DNA from: an uncultured Clostridia bacterium
Lineage (GTDB): Bacteria > Bacillota > Clostridia > TANB77 > CAG-508
DNA length: 64,000 nucleotides
Reading direction: 5' to 3'
NCBI GenBank assembly: GCA_944386135.1
Contig: CALWZW010000002.1
Coordinates: 31,926-95,925, forward strand
Shown here in pieces: positions 1,727 to 39,797 of this stretch. The position numbers were made by a program, and so were the translations under genes. The notes beneath the pieces were generated by a model, which saw only the letters and a program-made list of their open reading frames with translations, was not told the DNA's origin and made no database searches. The stretch's first letter is position 1. The number at the start of each line of letters is the position of its first letter.

Positions 1727-2788
1727 ATGATTAAGAAATTCGCATATATAATTGGATTAGCAGTTTTTTTAATGCTTTTTTTATCTTCTACATGTTTTGC
1801 CCTTTCTCCCTCTTCTGATACAATTTATGAAGGGATAGATGTAAGTGACTGGCAAGGAAATATAAATTACAGTGAAGTTAAAGCTTCTGGCATTGATATT
1901 GTATACATAAAAGCTAGTCAAGGAACTAATATTACAGACCCATACTTTAAAACAAACTATAATAATGCTAAGATGAATGACCTTAAAGTAGGGCTTTATC
2001 ACTTTCTAACTGCTCGAACTGAAGAAGAAGCGATAGAAGAAGCGGAATATTTTTCTTCTGTAATTTCTGGTACTTCGCCAGACTGTAAACTTGCAATGGA
2101 CTTTGAAAACTTTGGAAATTTAACTAAAGATGAGATAAACAATATATCAACTGCATTTTTAGAAAAAGTTAAAGCTTTGACTAACAAAGATGTCGTAATC
2201 TATAGCGATGCTTCTAATGCAAGAAATATATTTGATTCAAAACTTGCAAATAGTTATCCTTTATGGATTGCAGAATATGATGTATCTTCACCTTCAAGTA
2301 ATGTTAATTGGAACTCTTGGGTTGGTTTTCAATACACTGATACAGGCACTATTTCTGGAATTAGAGGTTTTGTAGATAGAGATAAATTTACTGATGATAT
2401 TCTTTTAGGTTCAAATGATGTTATTACAACTACTCCAAATAATAAAAATAAAATAGAATATTATACTGTAAGAAGCGGAAATACATTAAGTAGAATAGCT
2501 TCTGAATTTGGAACAACTGTTAATGAAATTGCTGGTTTGAATAGTATTAGAAATGTTAATTTGATTTATCCTGGAGAAGTTCTTAAAATAGATGTAACTA
2601 GAAATTTAGATGAGATACAAAGTAATGTATATGAGACAAATCATATTGTATACACTATAAAACGTGGTGATACTTTAACTGCTATTGCCAATAGATTTGG
2701 TATTTCTATCGAAAGTATTGTTAGATTGAATAATATAAAAAATCCTAACCTTATTTATGCAGGAGAAAGACTTAGAATAAATAATTAA
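1727..2788 (+). CDS. secreted GH25 muramidase (lysozyme) with two C-terminal LysM domains
   Basis: Signal peptide. GIDVSDWQGNINY..VYIKASQG..GLYHF is the GH25 Lyc fold. Two LysM repeats follow (YTVRSGNTLSRIASEFG..., YTIKRGDTLTAIANRFG...). An AGGAGG RBS sits upstream. Confidence 0.8.
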   Translation: MIKKFAYIIGLAVFLMLFLSSTCFALSPSSDTIYEGIDVSDWQGNINYSEVKASGIDIVYIKASQGTNITDPYFKTNYNNAKMNDLKVGLYHFLTARTEEEAIEEAEYFSSVISGTSPDCKLAMDFENFGNLTKDEINNISTAFLEKVKALTNKDVVIYSDASNARNIFDSKLANSYPLWIAEYDVSSPSSNVNWNSWVGFQYTDTGTISGIRGFVDRDKFTDDILLGSNDVITTTPNNKNKIEYYTVRSGNTLSRIASEFGTTVNEIAGLNSIRNVNLIYPGEVLKIDVTRNLDEIQSNVYETNHIVYTIKRGDTLTAIANRFGISIESIVRLNNIKNPNLIYAGERLRINN

Positions 2789-2799
2789 TTAATCAAAAA

Positions 2800-2965
2800 G
2801 TAGAAAAATGGCACAATATTTCCGCCTACCTTTTGGAGTAATATTTATAATTTTATCGTTCTTTGCTGGCTTCGCCACTCGCCTAGGGTCTCTCCCACTC
2901 GGGGAGCCTCCCTGCGCAGAACTTCTAAAATTAGAAATATTACTCCAAAACGGCTAGGTTGTGCT
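2800..2965. repeat. MITE-like palindromic repeat element, copy 1 (about 24 bp terminal inverted repeats TTTTGGAGTAATATTTNTAATTTT around a GC-rich core)
   Basis: About 150 bp that are nearly identical to the reverse complement of 39235-39400. It has internal TIRs and lies in a convergent intergenic region. Confidence 0.7.
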
Positions 2966-3004
2966 TATTTATTGAGTAGAAAAATGACACAAAGTTATAC
3001 TACA

Positions 3005-3170
3005 TTAAAATAAAAAAGAAAAGAAGTTATTTAATTTTAAGGAAGCCCGCGCAGCGAACAACGGAGCTGAAAGCGACGGCGAATGGTGCAGGCTCCTTAT
3101 AAATTTTATTTAGAAGCCTGCACCAGTAAGGGCAACGTAAAAATTCAATAACTTCTTTTCTTTATGCACT
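3005..3170. repeat. palindromic repeat element. The 18 bp inverted repeat AAAAGAAAAGAAGTTATT / AATAACTTCTTTTCTTT flanks a GC-rich core with the GGTGCAGGCT...AGCCTGCACC hairpin.
   Basis: Inverted repeats are seen directly. The right half recurs at 5865-5925. The element is bracketed by a GTAGAAAAATGACACAAA inverted repeat at 2977-2994 and 3177-3195. Confidence 0.6.
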
Positions 3171-3203
3171 ACATAAGATTTGTGTCATTTTTCTTACAAT
3201 ATT

Positions 3204-4448
3204 CTAACTCTTTTTTCTTCTTATAATCCAATTTTTCTCACACTTGATAGGTAAATGCATTTTTACCAACTGTCCTTTTCTTCCAGGACTTATGCTCTCT
3301 ATTTCTCTATCATTCTCTGCATCCCATAATCTATCTATTTTAAATTTAAACACATCAATAGTTCCTGGAATTATAATCTCTAAAGTATCTCCAACAAATA
3401 ACTTATTCTTTATCTCGATAATAGATTTATCACTATCGTATTCTAGTATTTTTCCTCCAAACTCATAATCTGGATTATATTGTTTTCCTTCAAACTCTTG
3501 GAAATCTTTATTATTCCTATCATTAAAATAAAATGTAGTTAAGCTTCTTGTTTTAACTTTATCTATCTCAGTTAAATATCTTGTATAATCATATTTTTCT
3601 GGATCTTTTATATAATCATCAATTGCATTTCTATATGCGTTTACTATACTTGCTAAATAGTATTCTGTCTTAAGTCTTCCTTCTATTTTAAGACTATCTA
3701 CTCCCATTTCTATTATATCTGGTATTTCTTTTACAAGGCATAAATCTTTTGATGAAAATATATAGGTTCCCTTTTCATCATATTCAATAGGCATCAAGTT
3801 TCCTGGATTATTTTTTTCTTCTGCATATACATTATATGCCCACCTACAACTTTGAGCACAATCCCCTAAATTTGCACTTCTTGAAGCTAAAAAATCACTT
3901 AAGAAGCATCTTCCTGAATATCCAAAGCACAATGCTCCATGAACAAAAATCTCTGTCTCGAGACCCATAGGAGTACCATTTATTATATCTTTTATCTGCT
4001 CTTTATTTAATTCTCTAGAAAGAATAACCCTCTTTGCACCATTTTTGTACCAAAACATTGCTGAATGAGCAGATACTACATTTGCTTGTGTACTAATATG
4101 TATATCTACATCAGGAGCTTCTTCTTTTATAACTTCTAAAACTCCTCCATCAGATAAAATAATTCCATCTACTTTAAGTTTGTTTAACATTCTTGCTTGT
4201 TTTTTTATTTCTTCATAATTTTCGTCTAATGCATATATATTTATTGCCGCATATACCTTTTTTCCAATTTCATGTGCATAGATAATAGTTTTTTCTAAAT
4301 CATCATCGTCAACTTCTGCTCTACTTCTTAAAGATAAAGAAGCGGTTCCGCAATATACAGCATCTGCTCCATAAAGAAATGCTATTTTTGCTTTTTCAAA
4401 TGAACCTGCTGGTGCAAGTAATTCTGGTTTTCTCATATATAATCTCAT
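3204..4448 (-). CDS. peptidase U32 family protein (PrtC/YrrN-YrrO-like; likely tRNA hydroxylation related)
   Basis: 414 aa. PELLAPAGSFEKAKIAFLYGADAVYCG...IYALDENYEE carries the U32 signature. Confidence 0.8.
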   Translation of the reverse strand: MRLYMRKPELLAPAGSFEKAKIAFLYGADAVYCGTASLSLRSRAEVDDDDLEKTIIYAHEIGKKVYAAINIYALDENYEEIKKQARMLNKLKVDGIILSDGGVLEVIKEEAPDVDIHISTQANVVSAHSAMFWYKNGAKRVILSRELNKEQIKDIINGTPMGLETEIFVHGALCFGYSGRCFLSDFLASRSANLGDCAQSCRWAYNVYAEEKNNPGNLMPIEYDEKGTYIFSSKDLCLVKEIPDIIEMGVDSLKIEGRLKTEYYLASIVNAYRNAIDDYIKDPEKYDYTRYLTEIDKVKTRSLTTFYFNDRNNKDFQEFEGKQYNPDYEFGGKILEYDSDKSIIEIKNKLFVGDTLEIIIPGTIDVFKFKIDRLWDAENDREIESISPGRKGQLVKMHLPIKCEKNWIIRRKKS

Positions 4449-4679
4449 TCCTTCCTAAAGGCACAAATCTGGTTGGAAAAGTTTTCAACCTTATCTCCTT
4501 TTTATTTGCAATTTATTCTAAATATTATATAATATTAGATACTAAAATTCAATAGTTGTATTTCTAAGGATTTCCAATAAGTTTTTAATTAAATATTAAG
4601 AATTAAGTCTCTTTACTTTTCTTTTAATTTCTGGTATGATTTTATAGTATCTATAATTTTAAATATACTTAATTAGAAA

Positions 4680-5864: not shown

Positions 5865-5925
5865 TATACAAAGTGGTGCAGGCTTCTGATAAACTTACTT
5901 TGAAGCCTGCACCAATAATGGCAAT
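5865..5925. repeat. hairpin repeat GGTGCAGGCTTC-N15-GAAGCCTGCACC followed by AATAACTTCTTTTCTTTAT (copy of the right half of the 3005-3170 element)
   Basis: Perfect 12 bp stem. Shared with 3078-3165. Confidence 0.65.
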
Positions 5926-5959
5926 AATAAAATTAAATAACTTCTTTTCTTTATTCTAA

Positions 5960-7774
5960 CTACTTACTTCTGTTTGCACGTTCACGCTCTTTGCTATCAA
6001 GAATTTTCTTTCTTAAACGTATATTTTGAGGTGTAACTTCAACTAATTCATCGTCTTGGATAAACTCTATTGCTTTTTCTAATGACATTTGAATTGGTGG
6101 AACTAAATGTAAAGCATCATCAGAACCAGAGGCTCTAGTATTTGTCAAATGTTTTTCTTTACATACATTAATTGCCAAATCTTCACTTCTAGAATTCAAT
6201 CCAACTATCATACCTTCATAAACTTCAGTTCCTGGTCCTATGAATAAATCTCCTTTATCTTGAGCATTATATAATCCATAAGTTACAGCTTTTCCAGCTT
6301 CAAATGCTACAATAGTTCCTCTTGACCTTGATGATATATCACCTTTATATGGCTCATAAGAATCAAAAATATGATTCATTGTTCCATTTCCCTTAGTATC
6401 TGTCATAAACTCTGAGCGATATCCAATTAAGCCTCTTGCAGGAATTTTAAATTCTATTTTAGTATGACCATCTTCTGCTGGTTCCATATTTGTCATTTCT
6501 GCTTTTCTCTTTCCTAATTTTTCAATAACATTTCCAACAAATTCGTCTGGAACATTTACAACAAGTCTTTCTATTGGTTCGCATTTTACTCCATTTATTT
6601 CTTTTATAATAACTTTTGGGCGAGAAACTAAAAGCTCAAATCCTTCTCTTCTCATTGTTTCAATTAACACTGATAAATGTAATTCCCCTCGACCAGCTAC
6701 TTCAAAAGAATCTGGTTGTGCTGTTTCTTTAACACGTAAACTTACATTTCTTTCAAGTTCTTTGAATAATCTATCTCTTATATGTCTAGAGGTAACAAAT
6801 TCTCCTTCGCGACCAGCAAAGGGTCCGTTATTAACACTAAATGTCATTGTTACTGTAGGCTCATCAATATCTACAAAGTCAATTTTTTCAACATGTTCTG
6901 GGTCACATATTGTTTCTCCAATATTAATATCAGCTATACCTGAAAATTCTATAATATCTCCTGCTTTTGCTTCTTCAACCTCAACTTTATCTAAGCCTCT
7001 ATGTGTATATACTTTAGCAATTTTTCCATTTGCAACTTTTCCGTCTTTTTTGCAAACTGCAACATTCATTCCAGGTCTCAAGGCTCCTCTTTCTAATCTA
7101 CCTACTGCAATTCTTCCAACATAGTCATCATAATCAATATTTGAAACTAACATTTGAGTTGGTCCATCTTCATCACAATCTGGTGGAGTTATTGTATTAA
7201 TTATTGTTTTGAATAAGCAATCCATTCCTCCATCTTTATCATTCATGTTAAGCTTTGCTATACCAAGTTTTGCAGAAGTATAAACAACTGGGAAATCTAA
7301 TTGTTCATCATTTGCATTTAGCTCAATAAATAGTTCTAATACTTCATCAACAACTTTGGCTGGATTAGAACCTGGTCTATCTATTTTATTGATTACTACT
7401 ATTGGCTTTAAATTTAAAGCTAATGATTTTTTTAGTACCTCTCTTGTTTGAGGCATAGCTCCTTCAAATGCATCAACAAGTAATAGCACTCCGTCAACCG
7501 TTTTTAAAACTCTTTCAACTTCTCCTCCAAAGTCTGCATGTCCAGGAGTATCAACTATATTTATCTTAACACCATCATACATTACAGATGTATTTTTAGC
7601 AAGAATGGTTATTCCTCTTTCTTTCTCTATATCGTTTGAGTCCATAACTCTTTCTGCAACTTGCTCATTTTCTCTAAAAATATGGCTTTGTTTTAAAAGT
7701 TCATCCACAAGTGTTGTTTTTCCATGGTCTACGTGTGCAATTATTGCTATATTTCTAATATTTTTGTTGTTCAT
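5960..7774 (-). CDS. typA: translational GTPase TypA/BipA
   Basis: 604 aa. IAIIAHVDHGKTTLVD G1 motif and EF-G-like domain order. Confidence 0.92.
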   Translation of the reverse strand: MNNKNIRNIAIIAHVDHGKTTLVDELLKQSHIFRENEQVAERVMDSNDIEKERGITILAKNTSVMYDGVKINIVDTPGHADFGGEVERVLKTVDGVLLLVDAFEGAMPQTREVLKKSLALNLKPIVVINKIDRPGSNPAKVVDEVLELFIELNANDEQLDFPVVYTSAKLGIAKLNMNDKDGGMDCLFKTIINTITPPDCDEDGPTQMLVSNIDYDDYVGRIAVGRLERGALRPGMNVAVCKKDGKVANGKIAKVYTHRGLDKVEVEEAKAGDIIEFSGIADINIGETICDPEHVEKIDFVDIDEPTVTMTFSVNNGPFAGREGEFVTSRHIRDRLFKELERNVSLRVKETAQPDSFEVAGRGELHLSVLIETMRREGFELLVSRPKVIIKEINGVKCEPIERLVVNVPDEFVGNVIEKLGKRKAEMTNMEPAEDGHTKIEFKIPARGLIGYRSEFMTDTKGNGTMNHIFDSYEPYKGDISSRSRGTIVAFEAGKAVTYGLYNAQDKGDLFIGPGTEVYEGMIVGLNSRSEDLAINVCKEKHLTNTRASGSDDALHLVPPIQMSLEKAIEFIQDDELVEVTPQNIRLRKKILDSKERERANRSK

Positions 7775-12805: not shown

Positions 12806-12957
12806 TTTTACCCTCTTTTCTTTTTCCTATTATTGCTTAAAAGCTTTATACCCCTAAATGATAATATATTTTTATTCAGCAAAATATATTATACAATATA
12901 TTATCAAAAAAAGCAAATTAATATTTTCTTAATTTATATATTTTTTATTAAATAATA

Positions 12958-15681: not shown

Positions 15682-16606
15682 TTATTTTTCTCCAATTACT
15701 TCTATCTCAAGTTCAATATTTTTTCCAGTTTTATCATATACTGTACTTTTTACATGTTCTATTAGCTTTAAGATATCAGAAGCTGTCGCATTTCCATCAT
15801 TTACAATAAAACCAGCATGTTTTTCAGAGACCTTTGCTCCGCCTATCTTTTTACCTTTTAAACCACATTCATCTATTAATTTGGCTGTAATAAAATCTTC
15901 TCCTCTTTTAAAAGTACTTCCAGCAGAAGGTTTATCATAAGGCTGTTTCTCCATGCGTAATTTTGCATATTCTTTCATCCTATTTTCTATTTCACTCTTT
16001 CTACCTTTTTTCAGTTTCAATGTGCTTTCTAATATTATGTATTTTTCAGAAGCAAATATGCTTTTTCTATATTCAAATTTATGTTCACTCAGGTTTAATT
16101 TGTGTGTACCTCCAGAATAATCTAATATTAAAGTTGAATATACGATATCTTTCATTTCTTTGCCGTAAGCACCAGCATTCATTTTTATTGCTCCTCCTAT
16201 TGTTCCTGGGATTCCGAGAAGCAAATTCGAAACCTTCTATTTGCAAATTTAGCAATTTTTGTGAAATTTCAGCATTTTTATTTCCACTACCAACTGTTAC
16301 AAAAATATCTTCCCCATTTTCTTCTATTTCAAACTTAGTAATCTCTATTTTGCAAACAATTCCTCTTATTCCTTTATCTGTCACTAAAACATTACTTCCG
16401 TTTCCTAGAATAAAAATTGGCAAATTTTCTCTTTGTGAAATTTCTAAAATATATTTTAACTTTTCTGCTGTATCTACTTTAACATAAATATCTGCACATC
16501 CACCAGTTTTAAACGATGTATGTTTTGACATTGGCTCATTTAGAAGTACGTTTTCCTTGCCAAGCTTTTCTTCTAATAATTTTATGATATCCATACTCTC
16601 CTCCAT
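15682..16606 (-). CDS. murB: UDP-N-acetylenolpyruvoylglucosamine reductase MurB, with an apparent frameshift near 16225
   Basis: The N-terminal FAD-binding part (16085-16606) and the C-terminal part (15682-16224, GIPGTIGGAIKMNAGAYG...STFKRG) are in different frames. The T-homopolymer GAATTTGCTTCTC at the junction suggests an indel. Confidence 0.8.
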
Positions 16607-16725
16607 TACTTTATTATTTTATCATAAATATATTTGTTTTTATAGTACTTTATGAAAATTTTGGATTATGCTAAAAAGGACATAGATAAATTTGCATCAT
16701 TTATCTACGTCCACTTTAACTGAGT

Positions 16726-28333: not shown

Positions 28334-28388
28334 AAACTTTCCTTTCTAATAATTTTTGTATAATAATCGATTATTTCCGCCTACCTTT

Positions 28389-31300
28389 TTAAAACATGCT
28401 ATCAAACAAACTCATCTGATTAGTTTCACTCATGCCTTCAAGGCACCCAAATTTTTCAAGCAAAGCAATTGTAGAATCTCCAACCTTTGCACGTTTTTTT
28501 ATATCTTGTTTTGATATAAACTCTCCATTCTCACGTGCCGCTTGAATTCCTTGTGCAGCTATTTGTCCCATTCCAGCTATACTATTTAATGGTGGACGTA
28601 TGCTACCATCTTCTACCTTAAATTTTATAGCATCTGACTTATATAAGTCAATAGGTAAGAAATTAAGTCCTCTTTCATACATTTCAAGTACTAGTTCCAA
28701 TATTGAATACATGTTTTTATCCTTAGCTGATGCATCATTTCCAAGCCTTTTTATGTCTGCCATTTTTTCTTTTACTTTACTTTTTCCAAATATCATTATT
28801 TCGCTATCAAATTCATCTGCTCTTATTGAGAAGAAAGTTGCATAATATGCAAGAGGCATATGAACTTTAAACCAGGCTATACGAAACGCCATAGTTACAT
28901 AAGCAACCGCATGTGCTTTTGGGAACATGTACTCAATTTTTTTACAAGAATCTATGTACCAGTCAGGAACATCGTGTTCTCTCATAAGAGCTTCTTGTTC
29001 TTCTGATAATCCTTTACCTTTACGTACGGATTCCATTATTTTAAATGAATTTTGTGCAGGAAGTCCTTTGTTTATAAGATATATCATAATATCATCTCTT
29101 GTACATATTGCTTCAGCAAGGGTAGCTGTACCTGATTTTATTAAATCTTGTGCATTATTAGTCCATACGTTAGTACCATGCGACAAACCTGATATTCTTA
29201 TAAGTTCTTCAAATGTTTTAGGTAGTGTTTCAACAAGCATTTCTCTAACAAATCTTGTTCCAAATTCTGGTACGCCGAATGTTCCTACTTTAGAATCTAT
29301 TTGTTCAGGTCTAACACCTAGTGCTTCTGTAGAAGAGAATATTGACATTGTCGCTTTATCATCAAGTGGTATACTTTTTGGGTCAACATTCGTAATATCT
29401 TGAAGCATTCTTATTACTGTTGGATCATCGTGACCTAGCATATCGAACTTAAGTAAGTTTTTATCTATTGAGTGATAGTCAAAGTGTGTTGTTATTATAT
29501 CTGAATTAGGATCATCTGCTGGATGTTGTACAGGACAAAACTCATATATTTCACGTCCTTGAGGCACAACAATAACTCCACCTGGGTGTTGCCCAGTTGT
29601 TCTTTTTACTCCAGTACATCCCTTTGCAAGTCTCTCTATTTCGGCTGAACTTGTATGTATATTTCTTTCTTCAAAATAATTTTTTACATATCCATAAGCT
29701 GTTTTTTCTGCTATTGTACCTATTGTACCTGCTTTAAAAGTTGTACCTTTTCCAAGAATTACTTCTGCATATTTATGAGCTTTAGTTTGATATTCTCCAG
29801 AAAAGTTAAGGTCTATATCAGGCTCTTTATCTCCATTAAATCCTAGGAATGTTTCAAATGGAATATCTACTCCATCTTTAACAAGCTTTGTACCACATTT
29901 AGGACAATTTGCATCTGGTAAGTCGAAACCATTTTTAACCCCATGGCCTGAAAAATCTGAATACTTACATTTTGGGCACCTATAATGCGGTTTTAAGGCA
30001 TTAACTTCCGTTATACCTGTCATATAGGCTGCAAGAGAAGAACCTACAGAACCTCTTGAACCTACCAAGTATCCATCCTCATTAGATTTCCACACAAGTT
30101 TTTGAGCTATTATGTACATTACCGAGAAGCCATTTCTTATAATTGAATCTAGTTCCTTTTTTAATCTTGTTTCTACAATTTCTGGAAGTGGATCTCCATA
30201 TAATTCTTTTGCTCTATTCATGGCAATATCTTCAATGGTTTTTTCGCATCCTTCAATATGTGGAGGGCACTTTTCCTTAGAAATTGGACTAATTGGTTCA
30301 CACATATCCGCTATTTTATTAGTGTTTGTTACAACAACTTCATAAGCTTTTTCTCTTCCTAGATATGCAAATTCATCTAACATTTCCTCCGTTGTGCGTA
30401 AATATAAAGGAGCTTGCATGTCTGCATCATCAAATTTTTGTCCAGCCATTAATATTCTTCTATATATTTCATCTTCAGGATCCATAAAATGGACATCACA
30501 AGTTGCAACTACAGGTTTTCCAAGTTTTTCACCTAATGCTACTATTTTTCTGTTTATTTCCATTAATCCATCTCGATTCTCCATTGTACCATTTCTTATT
30601 AAATATTCATTGTTACCTAATGGCTGTATTTCTAAATAATCATAAAATGATGCAATTTCCTCTATTTTTTCTTCTGATAGCCCCTCTAATATAGCTTGAT
30701 ATAGCTCTCCTCTATCACATGCACTACCTATTATTAGTCCTTCACTATATTTTCTGTATACACTTCTTGGAATTTTAGGTTTTTTATAAAAATAATCCAA
30801 ATGAGAAAAAGATATTAGTTTATATAGATTTTTTAGTCCTACATAATTTTTCGTTAAAATAACAGCATGATATGTTGGTAAATGTTTCAAGTTCAATTCG
30901 TCTTTATATGCATTATCAATTTCATTTACTGTTGTAACACCTTTTTCTTTTAGTTTTTTAATCATTACCTCAAAAACTTTTACAAGTGTTTTTACATCGT
31001 CTAAAGCTCTGTGTGCAACATCAACTCTTATTCCTAGGTTATCAGCTATAACTCCAAGTTTATGTTTTTTATAATCTGGAAACATATCTCTTGCAAGTGC
31101 GAGAGTATCAATATATGTATTATTTAGTTTATATCCTTGTAGCTCCGCAAAATGTCTAATAAATCCAATATCAAAATTTGCATTGTGTGCAACTAAAACA
31201 TCATCTCCTATAAATTCTAGGAATTTGGGTAATACTTGCTCTATTGTTTCTGCATCTCTTACCATATCATCTGTAATATGTGTAACTTTGATTACTTCAT

Positions 31301-32372
31301 AAGGTATTGGTTTTTCTGGATTTACAAAGCATTCAAAAGTATCTATAATTTCACCGTTTTTTATTTTTATAGCACCAAATTCAGTGATTTTTTCTGTTCT
31401 AAATGAAAGTCCTGTTGTCTCTATATCTAATACGCAATATTCTGTATCTAAATTTTGGTTTTTAGGGTTATATACACTTGTTTGTCCATCTGGAACAAGG
31501 TACGCTTCGACTCCATATAGTACTTTTATATCTCCTTTATTATCTTCCACTACATGATTAGCTTTAGGAAAAGATTGTACTACTCCATGGTCTGTAATTG
31601 CAATAGCCTTCATCCCCCATTTTCTGGCGCGATTTATAAGATCTTCTACTGGTGTTACTCCATCCATTTGGCTCATTTGAGTATGCATATGAAGTTCTAC
31701 TCTTTTTACTTCACTTCTGTCCATTCTTGTCATCTCATTTTTAGCTTCTGCTTCCATAACTACATTTGCCATAATAGTTACTTCTTTTGAAAATGGGTCA
31801 AATTGAGCATTTCCAGAGACAGTAACTCTAGGTGCAGAATTTATTCTATCTAATACTTTATCCTTTACATCTGGTTCTATGAAAGCTTTGCAAGTTATTG
31901 TACAAGAACCATCATATACATTTATCATTAGAAGGAATTTACCAGACTTAAGTTCTTTTAATTCCTGTTTTATTATTTTTCCACAGATAACTACTTTTCC
32001 ACTATCCATGTTTATATCTTTTACTTTTACAACTTTGTCTGTAATTTTGGCTTTTTTGTTTCCTATTATTACTGGAGTGTACTCCTCTTGCTTTTCTTCT
32101 CCATTTTCTGTTGAATTTTTAGTTTGTTTGTGTGTTTTTGTTTCATGGACATCTACGTTTATCTCAACGTCTTGGACTCTAAATTTACTTTTTAGATAAA
32201 ATTCAAATGCTAATTTTTCACCAATTTGTATTTTGTTTGAAGATTTTAAATCTATTTCTAGTTTATTTGATTTTTTAAAAATACTTACATTTACTATTTC
32301 ACATTCTTGGATATTTCCATTTGCTTCATAGTCTTTAAATACGTCCTTTACTTTCTTTGCTTCATTTGTCAT
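28389..32372 (-). CDS. polC: DNA polymerase III alpha subunit, Gram-positive PolC type
   Basis: 1327 aa. PHP domain (HMHTQMS), inserted DnaQ-like exonuclease (YCVLDIETTGLS), C4 zinc module (CPKC..CPKC), polymerase core and C-terminal HhH/OB. Confidence 0.95.
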   Translation of the reverse strand: MTNEAKKVKDVFKDYEANGNIQECEIVNVSIFKKSNKLEIDLKSSNKIQIGEKLAFEFYLKSKFRVQDVEINVDVHETKTHKQTKNSTENGEEKQEEYTPVIIGNKKAKITDKVVKVKDINMDSGKVVICGKIIKQELKELKSGKFLLMINVYDGSCTITCKAFIEPDVKDKVLDRINSAPRVTVSGNAQFDPFSKEVTIMANVVMEAEAKNEMTRMDRSEVKRVELHMHTQMSQMDGVTPVEDLINRARKWGMKAIAITDHGVVQSFPKANHVVEDNKGDIKVLYGVEAYLVPDGQTSVYNPKNQNLDTEYCVLDIETTGLSFRTEKITEFGAIKIKNGEIIDTFECFVNPEKPIPYEVIKVTHITDDMVRDAETIEQVLPKFLEFIGDDVLVAHNANFDIGFIRHFAELQGYKLNNTYIDTLALARDMFPDYKKHKLGVIADNLGIRVDVAHRALDDVKTLVKVFEVMIKKLKEKGVTTVNEIDNAYKDELNLKHLPTYHAVILTKNYVGLKNLYKLISFSHLDYFYKKPKIPRSVYRKYSEGLIIGSACDRGELYQAILEGLSEEKIEEIASFYDYLEIQPLGNNEYLIRNGTMENRDGLMEINRKIVALGEKLGKPVVATCDVHFMDPEDEIYRRILMAGQKFDDADMQAPLYLRTTEEMLDEFAYLGREKAYEVVVTNTNKIADMCEPISPISKEKCPPHIEGCEKTIEDIAMNRAKELYGDPLPEIVETRLKKELDSIIRNGFSVMYIIAQKLVWKSNEDGYLVGSRGSVGSSLAAYMTGITEVNALKPHYRCPKCKYSDFSGHGVKNGFDLPDANCPKCGTKLVKDGVDIPFETFLGFNGDKEPDIDLNFSGEYQTKAHKYAEVILGKGTTFKAGTIGTIAEKTAYGYVKNYFEERNIHTSSAEIERLAKGCTGVKRTTGQHPGGVIVVPQGREIYEFCPVQHPADDPNSDIITTHFDYHSIDKNLLKFDMLGHDDPTVIRMLQDITNVDPKSIPLDDKATMSIFSSTEALGVRPEQIDSKVGTFGVPEFGTRFVREMLVETLPKTFEELIRISGLSHGTNVWTNNAQDLIKSGTATLAEAICTRDDIMIYLINKGLPAQNSFKIMESVRKGKGLSEEQEALMREHDVPDWYIDSCKKIEYMFPKAHAVAYVTMAFRIAWFKVHMPLAYYATFFSIRADEFDSEIMIFGKSKVKEKMADIKRLGNDASAKDKNMYSILELVLEMYERGLNFLPIDLYKSDAIKFKVEDGSIRPPLNSIAGMGQIAAQGIQAARENGEFISKQDIKKRAKVGDSTIALLEKFGCLEGMSETNQMSLFDSMF

Positions 32373-32520: not shown

Positions 32521-34065
32521 TTATCTTGCTTTGATACTAAATGGTGATGTTGCTGTTCCAGAACCTGTTTCTCCAATCGTAACGGATGATCGATCAATTT
32601 CAACTACGGGGCGCACCGCAGAGCTAATGCTGTAGTTGTAGCTGCCCGAGTAATACAAATGGTTGGCGTCCACAGTACCACCGCCCACAAAGAACATCCT
32701 GAAATTCGCAATGAGACTGTTAAAGCCGACGCAGCGCGAAGCGAGCCAATACGTTGTCGAGTTCTCTGGGACAAACATACTATAATATGTTGCTCCTACA
32801 TTGCTTCTTGTCATGTTGTATGAATAATATGTCCATTTTCCTTTTAATGTCGTAGCATGTGATGTCCCTGTTACATAATTTGTTTGGTCACTTAAGTCTA
32901 AATCTTTTCCATATATTTCATTTACTGAGCCTGTTAATTCATCTGCAAATATATTTGGATAATATGTATTTGATGGCGAATATTCTCTTCCATAATTTGA
33001 ATATCCGTTTTTATTATATGTTGACACTTCTTCTATATCTCTTATTTTTAAACTTCTTCCTACTGCACTTAAGCTACTATTACTATACATTGCTTTACAC
33101 GCATCATCTAATAGTTTTACTCCATTATTATATCCATTTGCTCCACTTAAGTAAAATCCTGTATTTGCTGTTGTATCCGATATTAATGTAATTGTAGTAT
33201 CATCTACAAACATTATTCTCCATTTTAAACTTGTTATTGTTGAAAAACTTTTGTTACTACTTCCATTATATGTTCCTTGCGATGTAAAGCTTCCACTTAC
33301 TGGTGTATAATCTATATACTCTCCTATGCTTGCTTTTAACTCTTCTGTTGGCAATCCATTATCCTGTGTTCCTTGTTTTGTTATTGCACTTGTTGTTTGA
33401 TATCCTGCTCTATCTGATACTATGACTCTTATATAATAATTCTTTCCTACTTCTAAGTTTGTATATGTATATGAACATGTTCCTTCTGTACTCGCTTCTG
33501 TTCTTACTGTCGTAAAATCTTCATCATTCTCTGTTCCTATATTATCTACACTACTCATTCCGGTTAGCTCATCATAATATACTTGATATACATACCCTTC
33601 TTGCACAGTTACTATTATATCTTTACTTTCTTCATTTGGCACTGCTGATTTTATCCATGACTCATTCTCCATATCTGCTGCCATACTTGTTACTGTTGTC
33701 GTTCTTCCTGCTAAGCTATCTGCTAGTATAATACTATGTACTAATTGCTCTATCTGCTCTTTATATTGCTGATACTTGTAGTCATCTACTGCTTCTTCTG
33801 TTCCGACTATTATCCCTTCATCTCCTGTGATTTGGCTTACTGCAACTCCTACTAGTATGACAAGTAATATTACTGTAACTAGCAATGCAATTAATGTAAT
33901 TCCTCTTTCTTCCCTTGTTTTTTTGAATTCGTATGATTTTTGTGTACTATTAATATACCCTTTAATTAGGGCATAATGGTTTGGTCTGACTTTGATTTTC
34001 ATTTTTGGTTTGGTTTCCTCCTTGTTCTTTAGTTTAGTTTTTTGTGTCTTTTCGAAATCTGCCAA
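32521..34065 (-). CDS. large pilin-like surface protein. A 54 aa leader precedes a non-canonical type IV prepilin-like segment G-ITLIALLVTVILLV (no Glu+5). TTG start.
   Basis: 514 aa. The start codon TTG at 34063-34065 lies inside a 39 bp palindrome arm. The hydrophobic helix resembles a minor-pilin (GspK/PilX-like) N-terminus. The remainder is Thr/Ser/Tyr/Asn-rich. Confidence 0.5.
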   Translation of the reverse strand: MADFEKTQKTKLKNKEETKPKMKIKVRPNHYALIKGYINSTQKSYEFKKTREERGITLIALLVTVILLVILVGVAVSQITGDEGIIVGTEEAVDDYKYQQYKEQIEQLVHSIILADSLAGRTTTVTSMAADMENESWIKSAVPNEESKDIIVTVQEGYVYQVYYDELTGMSSVDNIGTENDEDFTTVRTEASTEGTCSYTYTNLEVGKNYYIRVIVSDRAGYQTTSAITKQGTQDNGLPTEELKASIGEYIDYTPVSGSFTSQGTYNGSSNKSFSTITSLKWRIMFVDDTTITLISDTTANTGFYLSGANGYNNGVKLLDDACKAMYSNSSLSAVGRSLKIRDIEEVSTYNKNGYSNYGREYSPSNTYYPNIFADELTGSVNEIYGKDLDLSDQTNYVTGTSHATTLKGKWTYYSYNMTRSNVGATYYSMFVPENSTTYWLASRCVGFNSLIANFRMFFVGGGTVDANHLYYSGSYNYSISSAVRPVVEIDRSSVTIGETGSGTATSPFSIKAR

Positions 34066-34175
34066 TAGGGACGCATCTAAAATGGCAGGTTTTCGAAAAA
34101 TAAGTTTATTAGATTTTAATTTTAATCAAAACCTGCCATTTTAGATGCGTCCCTATTGGCAGATTTCGTTATTAA
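34063..34175. repeat. REPIN-like inverted doublet: two 39 bp arms AAATCTGCCAATAGGGACGCATCTAAAATGGCAGGTTTT, perfect, separated by 35 bp
   Basis: Perfect inverted repeat. It overlaps the start codon of the 32521-34065 gene. Confidence 0.8.
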
Positions 34176-38238: not shown

Positions 38239-39122
38239 ACATCATTTATTCTAATTTCAAAATGTAGATGAGGCCCTGTAGTATTTCCGTGTCGAACCGA
38301 ACTAGCGCAATTTCTTGTCCTTGGCTTATCGTATCTCCGAACTGATGCTAAAAGCTTGCTACAATGTGCATATACTGTTTTTACTTCTCCATTTTCAATC
38401 ATAATATAATTCCCATAACTTGAAGAATGTCTTGCTATAGTGACAGTTCCACTTGTTGCTGCTACTATACTCGTTCCAGTTACAGCTGCAATATCTATTC
38501 CTTTATGATATGTAGACATTACACTTGAAGTTGCTTCTCTTGTCCCAAATTCTGATGATACAGTGCCAGATACTGGCAGTATAAATGAATATTGCTGTTT
38601 TATTCTATCGGTTTCACTTAATTCTACATTTTTTACTTCTGTCTGTACCGTTGTTTCTTCAATCTCAGCAGATACAGCTGACACATTTTGATTCTCTATA
38701 TTTTCTTGTTCTGTAACTAAATTTTGTTCTTCATTTATTGTTTCATTTTCCATTTGTCCTTCTAGCTTATTTTCCTCTGTACTTTCTACATTTTGTATCC
38801 CTATAGAAGATATATAATTATTTATTACATTTATCACATTATTATATATCCCCATAAAATCCACATCATGTGATATTAATTCTTCTGTTTTATTTAAAGC
38901 ACTTTGTGAAAAACTATAGTTTGTTGTATCCACAAGATAAAATATAAAATATATTAACACGCATATTATTACTTGAAGAGCTAACCTCTTTAATAATTTA
39001 AAATTTCTTGGTTCAGATACATTTACTGTTGCTCTCTTTGTTCTCTCTCGTAAGTTCTGTCTTTGTGCATAAATTTCTTCTGCTCGTCTTATTCTTTCAT
39101 TAGAACTAATTGCTCTTTCCAT
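38205..39122 (-). CDS. M23/LytM family peptidase (SpoIVFA/SpoIIQ-like position), with a possibly frameshifted C-terminal part
   Basis: N-terminal TM. YHKGIDIAA and HLHFEI zinc-site motifs are present. The segment between them (SVRRYDKPRTRNCASSVRHGNT) looks out of frame. Confidence 0.6.
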   Translation of the reverse strand: MERAISSNERIRRAEEIYAQRQNLRERTKRATVNVSEPRNFKLLKRLALQVIICVLIYFIFYLVDTTNYSFSQSALNKTEELISHDVDFMGIYNNVINVINNYISSIGIQNVESTEENKLEGQMENETINEEQNLVTEQENIENQNVSAVSAEIEETTVQTEVKNVELSETDRIKQQYSFILPVSGTVSSEFGTREATSSVMSTYHKGIDIAAVTGTSIVAATSGTVTIARHSSSYGNYIMIENGEVKTVYAHCSKLLASVRRYDKPRTRNCASSVRHGNTTGPHLHFEIRINDVCINPRLILNF

Positions 39123-39234
39123 TTGTGCCTCCTCTTTTTAGTTTAACTTCTGTTATATTAATTTATATGTCCAACCAAAATTTTTAGCACAAATTTTACT
39201 TTTGTTGTGTCCAAAAGGACCCACTGACAAATAA

Positions 39235-39400
39235 CACAAATATAGAAATATGATAATACTATATTTAGCCGTTTTGGAGTAATATTTCTAATTTTTGAAG
39301 TGACGCGCAGTGAGGCTCCCCGAATAGGAATGACCATAGGTGAGTGGCGAAGCCAGCAAGGAACAATAAAATTAGAAATATTACTCCAAAAGGTAGGCGG
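39235..39400. repeat. MITE-like palindromic repeat element, copy 2 (inverted relative to 2800-2965)
   Basis: The reverse complement is near-identical to copy 1 over about 150 bp (TTTCCGCCTACCTTTTGGAGTAATATTT...GCTGGCTTCGCCACTC...TCGGGGAGCCTC...AAAATTAGAAATATTACTCCAAAA). Confidence 0.7.
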
Positions 39401-39452
39401 AAATTGTGTCATTTGTCTACGTCCCCTTTAACACACAACGACCGGATTAATA

Positions 39453-39797
39453 TTATTTTAATATACTCATAATTATACCTATTAAAGCTGTTATTCCTAA
39501 AAAGAAACTAGATATTTGAAGCTTTTTATATTTTATATTCATATTTCTTAACTCTTTTTTCATTTCTTTTGGCTTTTCTAACTCTTTTATATAATCTTGT
39601 ATAATTAATTCTGCTTCTCTTACTGCCAAGTCATAATTTCCTCCTGTTGATTTTTCCTGATTAATTGAATTCTTATTTTCTATTTTCTCTCTATTTTTTA
39701 ATTTAACATTCTTTTTTAATATTACTATTGCTTCATCTACAATATTAGATGGTAAGTCCCTTAAAACTATTATATTTTTCATTTGACTTGTATTCAT
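39453..39797 (-). CDS. hypothetical protein with a C-terminal TM anchor
   Basis: 114 aa ORF. Confidence 0.35.
   Translation of the reverse strand: MNTSQMKNIIVLRDLPSNIVDEAIVILKKNVKLKNREKIENKNSINQEKSTGGNYDLAVREAELIIQDYIKELEKPKEMKKELRNMNIKYKKLQISSFFLGITALIGIIMSILK

Follow-up and report, generated by a model that had tools for sequence, protein, structure and literature searches.

A 138-bp near-palindromic intergenic repeat, probably of the MITE/ERIC/Correia kind, in uncultured Clostridia

Small palindromic repeats are well known from the Proteobacteria, from Neisseria, from pneumococci, and from the Bacillus cereus group, but there are hardly any descriptions of them for those gut Clostridia that have been seen in metagenomes only. 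The ERIC/IRU sequences of the Enterobacteriaceae are imperfect palindromes of ~127 bp that are classed as miniature inverted-repeat transposable elements (MITEs) (PMC3184786, Table 1), as are the Correia elements (CREE/nemis) of Neisseria, at 104 to 157 bp, and the 107-bp RUP of Streptococcus pneumoniae (PMC3184786). The bcr1 sequences of the Bacillus cereus group are intergenic repeats of ~155 bp (PMC3184786), and REPINs and BIMEs are doublets of REP sequences that are mobilized by RAYT tyrosine (HUH) transposases (PMC3116915, PMC3337134, PMC3733652). Here we describe E1, an element found twice in a 64,000-nucleotide stretch of the genome of an uncultured Clostridia bacterium (GenBank assembly GCA_944386135.1, contig CALWZW010000002.1, positions 31,926 to 95,925; below, the window). 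E1 is probably a 138-bp, low-copy, non-autonomous, near-palindromic intergenic repeat of the MITE/ERIC/Correia kind. In at least two species of uncultured Clostridia it is found at intergenic sites that are not orthologous. Deletions remove it, either between the short direct repeats on its two sides or within the element, in which case a left-end stub stays behind. Small non-autonomous palindromic repeats of this sort have not previously been described in this lineage.

E1 is like ERIC in its similar size, its imperfect palindrome, its location in intergenic, probably transcribed DNA, and its low to moderate copy number. Both are also strikingly conserved across species at non-orthologous sites, and neither has a known dedicated transposase. 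Unlike ERIC, to which it bears no sequence relation, E1 belongs to a different phylum, has TA at both ends only in the copy called A below, carries an unpaired conserved 5' tail (TATTTCC), and sits inside pairs of REP-like arms. With Correia and RUP elements E1 shares a short, non-coding, strain-variable unit with terminal inverted repeats of ~25 nt that would give a long hairpin if transcribed. Correia and RUP elements have TA duplications, RUP has a candidate IS630-type partner, and Correia elements carry IHF sites and promoters. In contrast, E1 has no consistent TA duplication, no IS630-type partner was found for it, and nothing comparable to the IHF sites and promoters was found within it. 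The likeness to bcr1 is that of a Firmicutes intergenic repeat of similar size with a non-conserved genomic distribution, a predicted stable RNA fold, pair-preserving changes, and loss of structure in some copies. However, bcr1 has 5-bp direct repeats and two stem-loops, whereas E1 forms one long hairpin, lacks consistent direct repeats, and has no sequence similarity to bcr1.

The hairpin pairs that bracket E1, and three further pairs in the window (Table 1), are like REPINs in being two short inverted palindromes ~30 to 40 nt apart, with hairpin singlets as decay products and no target duplication. E1 is likewise hairpin-rich and shows no clear duplication. Unlike REP sequences, E1 lacks the terminal GTAG/CGTC tag and has arms of 24 or more nt around a 72-nt centre; in the neighbouring hairpins, GACG (the reverse complement of CGTC), and sometimes GTAG, lies inside the 16- to 18-nt loop and not at the terminus. 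The long conserved loops and variable stems of these hairpins set them apart from the published GTAG and CGTC families. A survey of the GTAG/CGTC REP family makes no mention of Clostridia or Firmicutes (PMC3733652), and no RAYT (Y1_Tnp) gene was seen in the window or in the loci fetched from other contigs and genomes (designated by L numbers). The architecture and behaviour of E1 are nearest to those of ERIC, Correia, RUP, and bcr1, and its surroundings nearest to those of REPINs. No sequence relation was found between E1 and any named family that could be searched.

Anatomy and distribution of E1

A preliminary description of the window, made from its letters alone, had proposed a near-identical inverted pair of MITE-like repeats. 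The pair is real. A repeat search returned paired arms at 2813-2956 and 39266-39409 (144 nt, 89% complementary), and the two copies, A and B, are 138 nt each and 89% identical (125/140 in a global alignment). The A/B alignment spans ~160 columns, with identity running from GTAGA.AAATG.CACAA to ...AAAACGGCTA; the narrower limits adopted here are given in Table 1. Copy B had been placed at 39235-39400, a few bases off its actual position.

Copy A consists of a 5' tail (ATTTCC), a closing GCC...GGC stem, 24-nt arms, a GC-rich centre, and a GGCT end. The ends of the element read TATTTCCGCC...GGCT, and its tips are asymmetric (ATTTCCGCC... versus ...CGGCT). The 24-nt arm pattern, TTTTGGAGTAATATTTNTAATTTT, has four exact matches in the window, two in each copy, against a shuffled expectation of 0.00. 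Arm complementarity is exact in all four cases and reaches 96% in the copy from another species described below. The centre rises to 72% GC in 40-nt windows against a background of ~29% and is one of only a handful of GC-rich islands in the window. The short non-coding architecture, with inverted arms around a GC-rich centre, stands as first described. Copies A and B differ at 1 of 48 arm nucleotides and at 13 of 72 centre nucleotides. The arms are thus far better kept than the centre, which is the pattern expected if the ends matter, as in MITEs. Copy A has a predicted fold of -57 kcal/mol (z of about -7 to -7.6), and either strand gives a long hairpin.

Table 1. Positions of E1, its parts, and associated features (window coordinates unless a locus is named)
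Feature	Position	Strand	Length	Remarks
E1 copy A	2818-2955	+	138 nt	Limits from the identity drop among A, B, and L011 and from the polC remnant, which starts ATTTCC
Left inverted arm, copy A	2831-2854	+	24 nt	Exact match to arm pattern
GC-rich asymmetric centre, copy A	2855-2926	+	72 nt	Invariant blocks TTGCTGGCTTCGCCACTC and TCGGGGAGCCTC
Right inverted arm, copy A	2927-2950	-	24 nt	Exact match to arm pattern
E1 copy B	39267-39404	-	138 nt	89% identical to copy A
Arm pattern match, copy B	39272-39295	+	24 nt	Exact
Arm pattern match, copy B	39368-39391	-	24 nt	Exact
E1 left-end remnant	28373-28389	+	17 nt	ATTTCCGCCTACCTTTT; 1-base overlap with polC stop codon
Presence/absence block at site A	2800-2975	+	176 bp	17-bp repeat GTAGAAAAATGgCACAA, E1, and 20-nt spacer
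Second 17-bp direct repeat	2976-2992	+	17 bp	GTAGAAAAATGACACAA; also left arm of E2
Palindromic element E2	2976-3196		221 bp	Adjoins copy A; GTAGAAAAATGACACAA arms, inner 34-nt arms, GC-rich centre
REP-like hairpin	39405-39438	-		TTGTGT-GTTAAAGGGGACGTAGACAAATG-ACACAA; abuts left end of copy B
Degenerate inverted partner hairpin	39205-39239	+		Orthologous to the single hairpin of L039; with 39405-39438 brackets copy B
REP-like hairpins, pair	34053-34168
REP-like hairpins, pair	45072-45190
REP-like hairpins, pair	46927-47040
REP-like hairpin	~16691-16720
REP-like hairpin, other locus	L011:5575-5616
REP-like hairpin, other locus	L012:4873-4908
REP-like hairpin, other locus	L039:2690-2726
REP-like hairpin, other locus	L043:4764-4871
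Site B spacer, window species			331 bp	Hairpin pair and E1
Site B spacer, L039 (M23 92% identity)			132 bp	One REP-like hairpin, no E1
Site B spacer, L040 (M23 72% identity)			123 bp	No hairpin, no E1
Site B spacer, L043 (M23 71% identity; same metagenome-assembled genome as L011)			106 bp	No hairpin, no E1

Copy A lies between convergent LysM/GH25 and U32 peptidase genes (site A), and copy B lies in a spoIVF-like operon, with a 114-aa gene on one side and an M23/M50 peptidase pair on the other (site B). The 17-mer ATTTCCGCCTACCTTTT occurs exactly three times in the window (0.02 expected): at the left ends of the two copies (2818-2834 on the + strand and 39388-39404 on the - strand) and as a remnant beside the polC stop codon, where the preliminary description had correctly noted a 17-bp piece. 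As polC (28389..32372) is on the - strand, this stub is antisense to it. The stub is fixed: all 10 strain contigs have an identical 55-bp spacer, and none of the 10 contains a full E1 at this site. A covariance model built from the known E1 copies (R1) also gave a weak match there, at 28369-28404. At site B, the copy is present in 9 of 10 strain contigs. In one strain, L027, the left arm is kept and 105 nt comprising the centre and right arm are deleted. This allele is the same kind of stub as the polC remnant. The density of E1 is thus two copies and one stub in 64 kb, and there is no additional copy in the ~9 kb to the left of the window.

One genome for each of 185,579 species was scanned for exact matches to the arm. 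A single true copy was retrieved, at L011:1880-2015 in a metagenome-assembled genome (MAG), "uncultured Clostridia bacterium E08__bin232," that represents a separate species from that of the window. This copy lies between two co-oriented + strand genes, ~70 nt upstream of a dnaE-like gene. With R1, a shorter relative, E1b, was additionally identified in a third species (L187:2527-2655; 29.8 bits, rough E = 4e-4); the U32 peptidases of this species and of the window have 92% identity. E1b is located downstream of pnp and has 27-nt arms around a 37-nt GC-rich centre. E1 and E1b have a common base: TATTTCC, GCC pairing with GGC followed by T, and GGAGT/ACTCC in an A-T-rich stem. The orthologous spacer of the window (12806-12957, downstream of pnp) does not contain E1b. 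In the loci of this clade, every occurrence of TTTCCGCC but one, a coding match, marks the left end of such an element (A, B, the polC stub, L011, or L187). The family is therefore not confined to the two copies first noticed.

Searches elsewhere returned nothing further. The core pattern had no match in the JGI metagenomes, and the six matches there to an arm-gap-arm pattern proved to be unrelated palindromic repeats from a eukaryote-like source of 40 to 52% GC. Three scans of viral contigs gave only chance 16- to 17-mer matches, none confirmed by nhmmer, and blastn against plasmids and phages gave no E1 match; all of these nucleotide searches covered exact or high-identity matches only. Concatenated six-frame translations of A and B had no match at E<=1 among 5.8 billion proteins, a query design that probably saturated the candidate list. 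No paper describing these sequences was found in the literature.

The sole other match of the exact-arm scan was at L012:4826-4849 in "uncultured Clostridium sp. UMGS1531," at the 3' end of an Asp23-like gene. It corresponds to the right 24-nt arm, forms a coding end (..KIRNITPK..), and is followed ~23 nt downstream by a REP-like hairpin. This match could be a coincidence or a hint at the origin of the arm. Several independent short-read contigs (the ends of L003 and L006 to L009, L004, L036, and L037) stop at an identical base in the left arm of copy A (...GGAGTAATAT), and further contigs stop inside the E2 arm. The shared stop points, seen in Logan contigs (including those of samples ERR6747193, ERR4993381, ERR6802169, ERR9525982, and ERR4303202), suggest more copies or variants in those genomes, beyond the resolution of the assemblies.

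Pairwise identities are 92.8% for B and L011, 89.3% for A and B, and 86.4% for A and L011. Third-codon identity between the window species and the L011 species is 0.63 to 0.67 for murC, the M23 gene, and the 114-aa gene and 0.83 to 0.86 for the genes for S6, S18, and SSB, so that E1 identity far exceeds that of silent sites. A neutral sequence passed down from the ancestor of both species should have diverged much further; therefore, the E1 copies are either younger than the species split or constrained. Furthermore, the sites themselves are non-orthologous: between LysM and U32 genes, in a spoIVF-like operon, upstream of dnaE, and, for E1b, downstream of pnp. Spacers orthologous to site B in related genomes lack E1 (Table 1), and in the species with 92% identity broken synteny makes site A uninformative.

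Deletion alleles and REP-like surroundings

Within the window species, site A is either filled or empty, and empty alleles are 176 bp shorter. The filled allele reads GTAGAAAAATGgCACAA, E1, a 20-nt spacer, and GTAGAAAAATGaCACAA, and the empty allele has a single 17-mer. The two repeats of filled alleles (17 contigs plus the window, a count in which several loci re-sample one contig) always carry the variants G...A in that order. Empty alleles are A-type in L031, L032, and L034 and G-type in L010 and L176. Because both types exist, at least one of them is a deletion across the 17-bp repeats; the crossover fell on one or the other side of the G/A site. The 17-bp repeat of site A was not seen at site B or in L011. 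The state of site A is not linked to the neighbouring 190-aa gene, as L192 is filled without the gene and L176 is empty with it. What differs between strains is in each case a larger block with direct repeats at its borders, and the differences look like deletions rather than clean insertions. E1 is an unstable element that has reached several unrelated sites, and no insertion was caught in the act.

E1 offers a compact, tractable example of deletion driven by a palindrome, with empty alleles of two types, and is at the same time a repeat that is 93% identical across species. In practical terms, E1 and the REP-like hairpin pairs break short-read assemblies and give strain-level length differences in otherwise identical housekeeping regions. 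Such breaks are relevant to MAG quality and to strain typing.

When the 5' half of each copy was aligned with its reverse-complemented 3' half, each of the three full copies proved to be embedded in a longer imperfect palindrome, and the outer arms have AGAAAA(A)TGACAC in common. The outer arms of copy A are GTAGAAAAATGGCACAA and, opposite it, a degenerate TTGTGCTTATTTATTGA, and those of the L011 copy are 22 nt long (GTTAAGATTTAAGAAAATGACA, 21/22 matching). On the left, identity between copies falls from ~90% to ~70% at ATTTCC, and on the right it falls directly after GGCT. These drops at the limits of E1 indicate that the outer arms are context or a preferred target and not part of the conserved unit. 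The same arm sequence is found in the 114-bp doublet at 46927-47040, as perfect 36-nt arms with a short A-T spacer, and it also bounds E2, which is present in all strains read. A relation between the centres of E1 and E2 was rejected, since alignment scores were no better than those of shuffles. The right half of E2, which includes a GC-rich hairpin of 12 bp (GGTGCAGGCTTC...GAAGCCTGCACC), recurs downstream of the BipA gene, at 5874-5966.

The arms belong to a family of REP-like hairpins with variable stems of 6 to 12 bp and a conserved loop of 16 to 18 nt (..GGGGACG..ATCTAAAA). They were found in four species, mostly directly after stop codons and on the sense strand, and often occur as inverted doublets of ~110 to 120 bp. 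After murC, doublets with different stems are present in the window species and in L043, and L040 has a canonical bidirectional terminator in their place. The hairpins have no Rfam match; in E-value mode, the interval 45040-47080 gave generic microRNA-precursor matches only.

Movement of E1 and alternative explanations

If E1 is a non-autonomous mobile repeat, as we consider probable, it would have reached its sites by transposition or a related copy-and-paste process, with an enzyme acting in trans that is encoded elsewhere. The process would leave no obvious target duplication and would prefer sites beside a ...AAATGACAC arm. A route through hairpin or single-stranded DNA (HUH/Y1-type, as proposed for REPINs) would be our guess over a DDE transposase, since no clear duplications are seen, the left tail is asymmetric and conserved, and the surroundings resemble REPINs. 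The mobile-element interpretation of the preliminary description gains from the strain polymorphism, the absence of E1 from orthologous sites in relatives, and the third copy elsewhere. Its MITE label fits the size, the non-coding sequence, and the inverted arms but is left without a transposase or a longer element with the same arms.

Several observations weigh against movement. Target-site duplication and a transposase partner are both required of a classical MITE. No clear target-site duplication is seen: TA is present at both ends only in copy A, and the left/right flanks are none/TA in B, TA/TG in L011, and TA/TC in L187. Pfam scans of the open reading frames (ORFs) of the window and the gene tables of the fetched loci revealed no transposase or recombinase; the genes are housekeeping genes and unannotated proteins without a Pfam hit. 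No longer element with the same arms was found by exact matching in the 185,579 species genomes. The retrieved set is small, with three full copies, one stub, and one distant relative, and the density is two copies per ~73 kb. Deletion alone can explain both presence/absence differences. Finally, the high cross-species identity could reflect selection for function instead of recent movement.

An insertion sequence was observed in one strain, 1.5 kb away, between the CmpB-like and U32 genes (L035:1705-2870, corresponding to window positions ~4556-4580). It has an HTH_28/HTH_32 N terminus, and its reading frame is broken in the long-read contig. The 25-bp direct duplication on its two sides, CTTATTGGAAATCCTTAGAAATACA, is unusually long, and the ends of the insertion sequence read T(A/G)TAGGTT...ATATGTCACAC. 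It was rejected as a partner of E1, whose ends are unlike its own (TGTAGGTT...ATATGTCACAC).

An RNA-level role for E1 is possible. That E1 is in the first place a functional structured RNA, either a cis-acting element of 3' or 5' untranslated regions or a small RNA read from the copy A strand, is nevertheless unlikely in our judgment. Under this explanation, an RNA hairpin whose GC-rich apical domain is specific would come first, and the DNA palindrome would follow from it. It draws on the apical 5-bp stem, in which CUCCC, UUCCU, UUUCC, or UUUCU faces GGGAG (GGGGG in L020) and G-U pairing is retained on the copy A strand only. A right-arm C-to-U change in L020 and L022 likewise gives G-U on that strand, and the whole palindrome has ~10 sense-strand G-U mismatches versus 3 A-C mismatches, which are not independent of one another. 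Two pairs of columns, 35-122 and 50-106, are compensatory, the centre contains two invariant blocks, cross-species identity is 93% against a silent-site divergence of ~35%, and copies B and L011 are co-oriented with the upstream gene.

However, three independent copies are too few for covariation, for which RNAalifold gives a term of -0.58 kcal/mol. Copy A by itself folds differently from the consensus, and the centre of copy B folds poorly, being unpaired in the centroid. C-to-T changes are also expected from AT-biased mutation in a genome of 29% GC. Copy B is no less variable among strains than its surroundings (5/140 nt versus 3/229 nt in the flanks). E1 is moreover dispensable, given that several strains have an empty site A and L027 has lost the centre. 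The stub at polC runs antisense to its gene, and the arms are much better conserved than the centre. No terminator-like site was found in 2600-3400 or 39000-39600 and no convincing promoter-like site in or at either copy. The whole window had no Rfam 15 match at the gathering threshold; hence, the core does not correspond to a known RNA that Infernal would recognize. At E<=10, the matches in the interval 2700-3300 were confined to generic models of long hairpins, namely microRNA precursors of plants and animals, with scores far below threshold, and ARAGORN found no tRNA or tmRNA. The small structured RNA family suggested in the preliminary description thus comes down to a few G-U-preserving changes among three independent copies. 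In view of the few copies, the differing folds, the mutational bias, the variability of copy B, and the conservation of arms over centre, we keep an RNA role as a minority alternative. If E1 is co-transcribed with its neighbours, its ~30-bp stem would form double-stranded RNA and could affect mRNA processing. As with Correia and ERIC elements, RNases specific for double strands could plausibly act on a stem of this length, which might change how stable the neighbouring transcripts are.

We are similarly doubtful that E1 is not, or is no longer, mobile and represents a relic palindrome, which recombination or gene conversion between REP-like arms would have spread and homogenized and which deletion would now only erode. 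Direct repeats border both polymorphisms (17 bp at site A and TTGTGT at site B), and at least one empty allele is a deletion. A cluster of three changes within 5 nt in L019 resembles conversion from another copy, and the stubs at polC and in L027 and the lack of a transposase also fit decay. In contrast, the copies are in unrelated gene neighbourhoods of different species and have unrelated outer flanks. The cross-species pair B/L011 is also closer than the within-genome pair A/B, which is hard to obtain by local recombination alone.

A broader proposal, to which we assign a low probability, is that E1 and E1b represent an undescribed class of hairpins in gut Clostridia that have a conserved base and either insert duplication-free beside REP-like arms via a single-strand/hairpin route or are maintained by the binding of a host factor. 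Members would be defined by the 5' TATTTCC tail, the GCC...GGC clamp, GGAGU/ACUCC in a long A-U stem, and a GC-rich apical domain. If such a class exists, the 93% identity across species between which silent sites are saturated would signify function or ongoing horizontal spread. Duplication-free spread beside hairpin arms, if true, would point to an uncharacterized hairpin-dependent mobilization system in Clostridia.

It is very improbable that E1 is an inverton, in which the 72-bp centre flips between the 24-nt inverted repeats. Inverted repeats around a short asymmetric intergenic segment in a gut bacterium would fit, but the centre has a single orientation throughout site A (17 filled contigs and the window) and site B (9 contigs). 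This orientation is constant relative to both asymmetric ends of E1 and to the flanking genes. Furthermore, no recombinase gene is nearby, and 72 bp is very short for recombinase-mediated inversion.

E1 almost certainly does not encode a small protein, for which the candidates would be a 49-aa ORF at 2808-2957 (+) or an 84-aa ORF at 39158-39412 (-): although one reading frame is open through all three copies, a 2-nt indel puts the ATG codons of A, B, and L011 out of frame with one another, translation from the ATG of L011 would end after 10 codons, all centre substitutions alter an amino acid in the shared open frame, and no assembly has a gene call across E1. An integron attC site, a retron RNA, a single-strand replication origin, a self-cleaving ribozyme, and a sigma-54 promoter (TGGCAC-N5-TTCC, in copy A only) were each rejected for want of a supporting motif, neighbouring gene, or Rfam hit.

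Other features of the window and related loci

A GC-rich, ORF-poor block of ~570 bp lies in the gap between the CmpB-like and U32 genes at L187:9345-9915. It is also found in L188, L190, and L191, is absent from L189, and is therefore strain variable. It has no Rfam family at the gathering threshold and could be a large structured RNA or a mobile element without ORFs.

In the window, murB is split (15682-16606) into overlapping ORFs at 16085-16606 (FAD_binding_4) and 15682-16224 (MurB_C), which is a frameshift, either real or an assembly error. A GC-rich island at 32603-32773 (57 to 62% GC), of a composition unusual for this genome, is located within the 3' part of a 514-aa ORF (32521-34065, - strand) that has no Pfam hit. 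Ten minus-strand ORFs without Pfam hits follow one another at 48456-56478. Three of them (ends at 52013, 53063, and 53750) have a common conserved hydrophobic N terminus, and a weak T2SSE-like ATPase (56450-57859) adjoins the run, which may be a pilus or secretion cluster.

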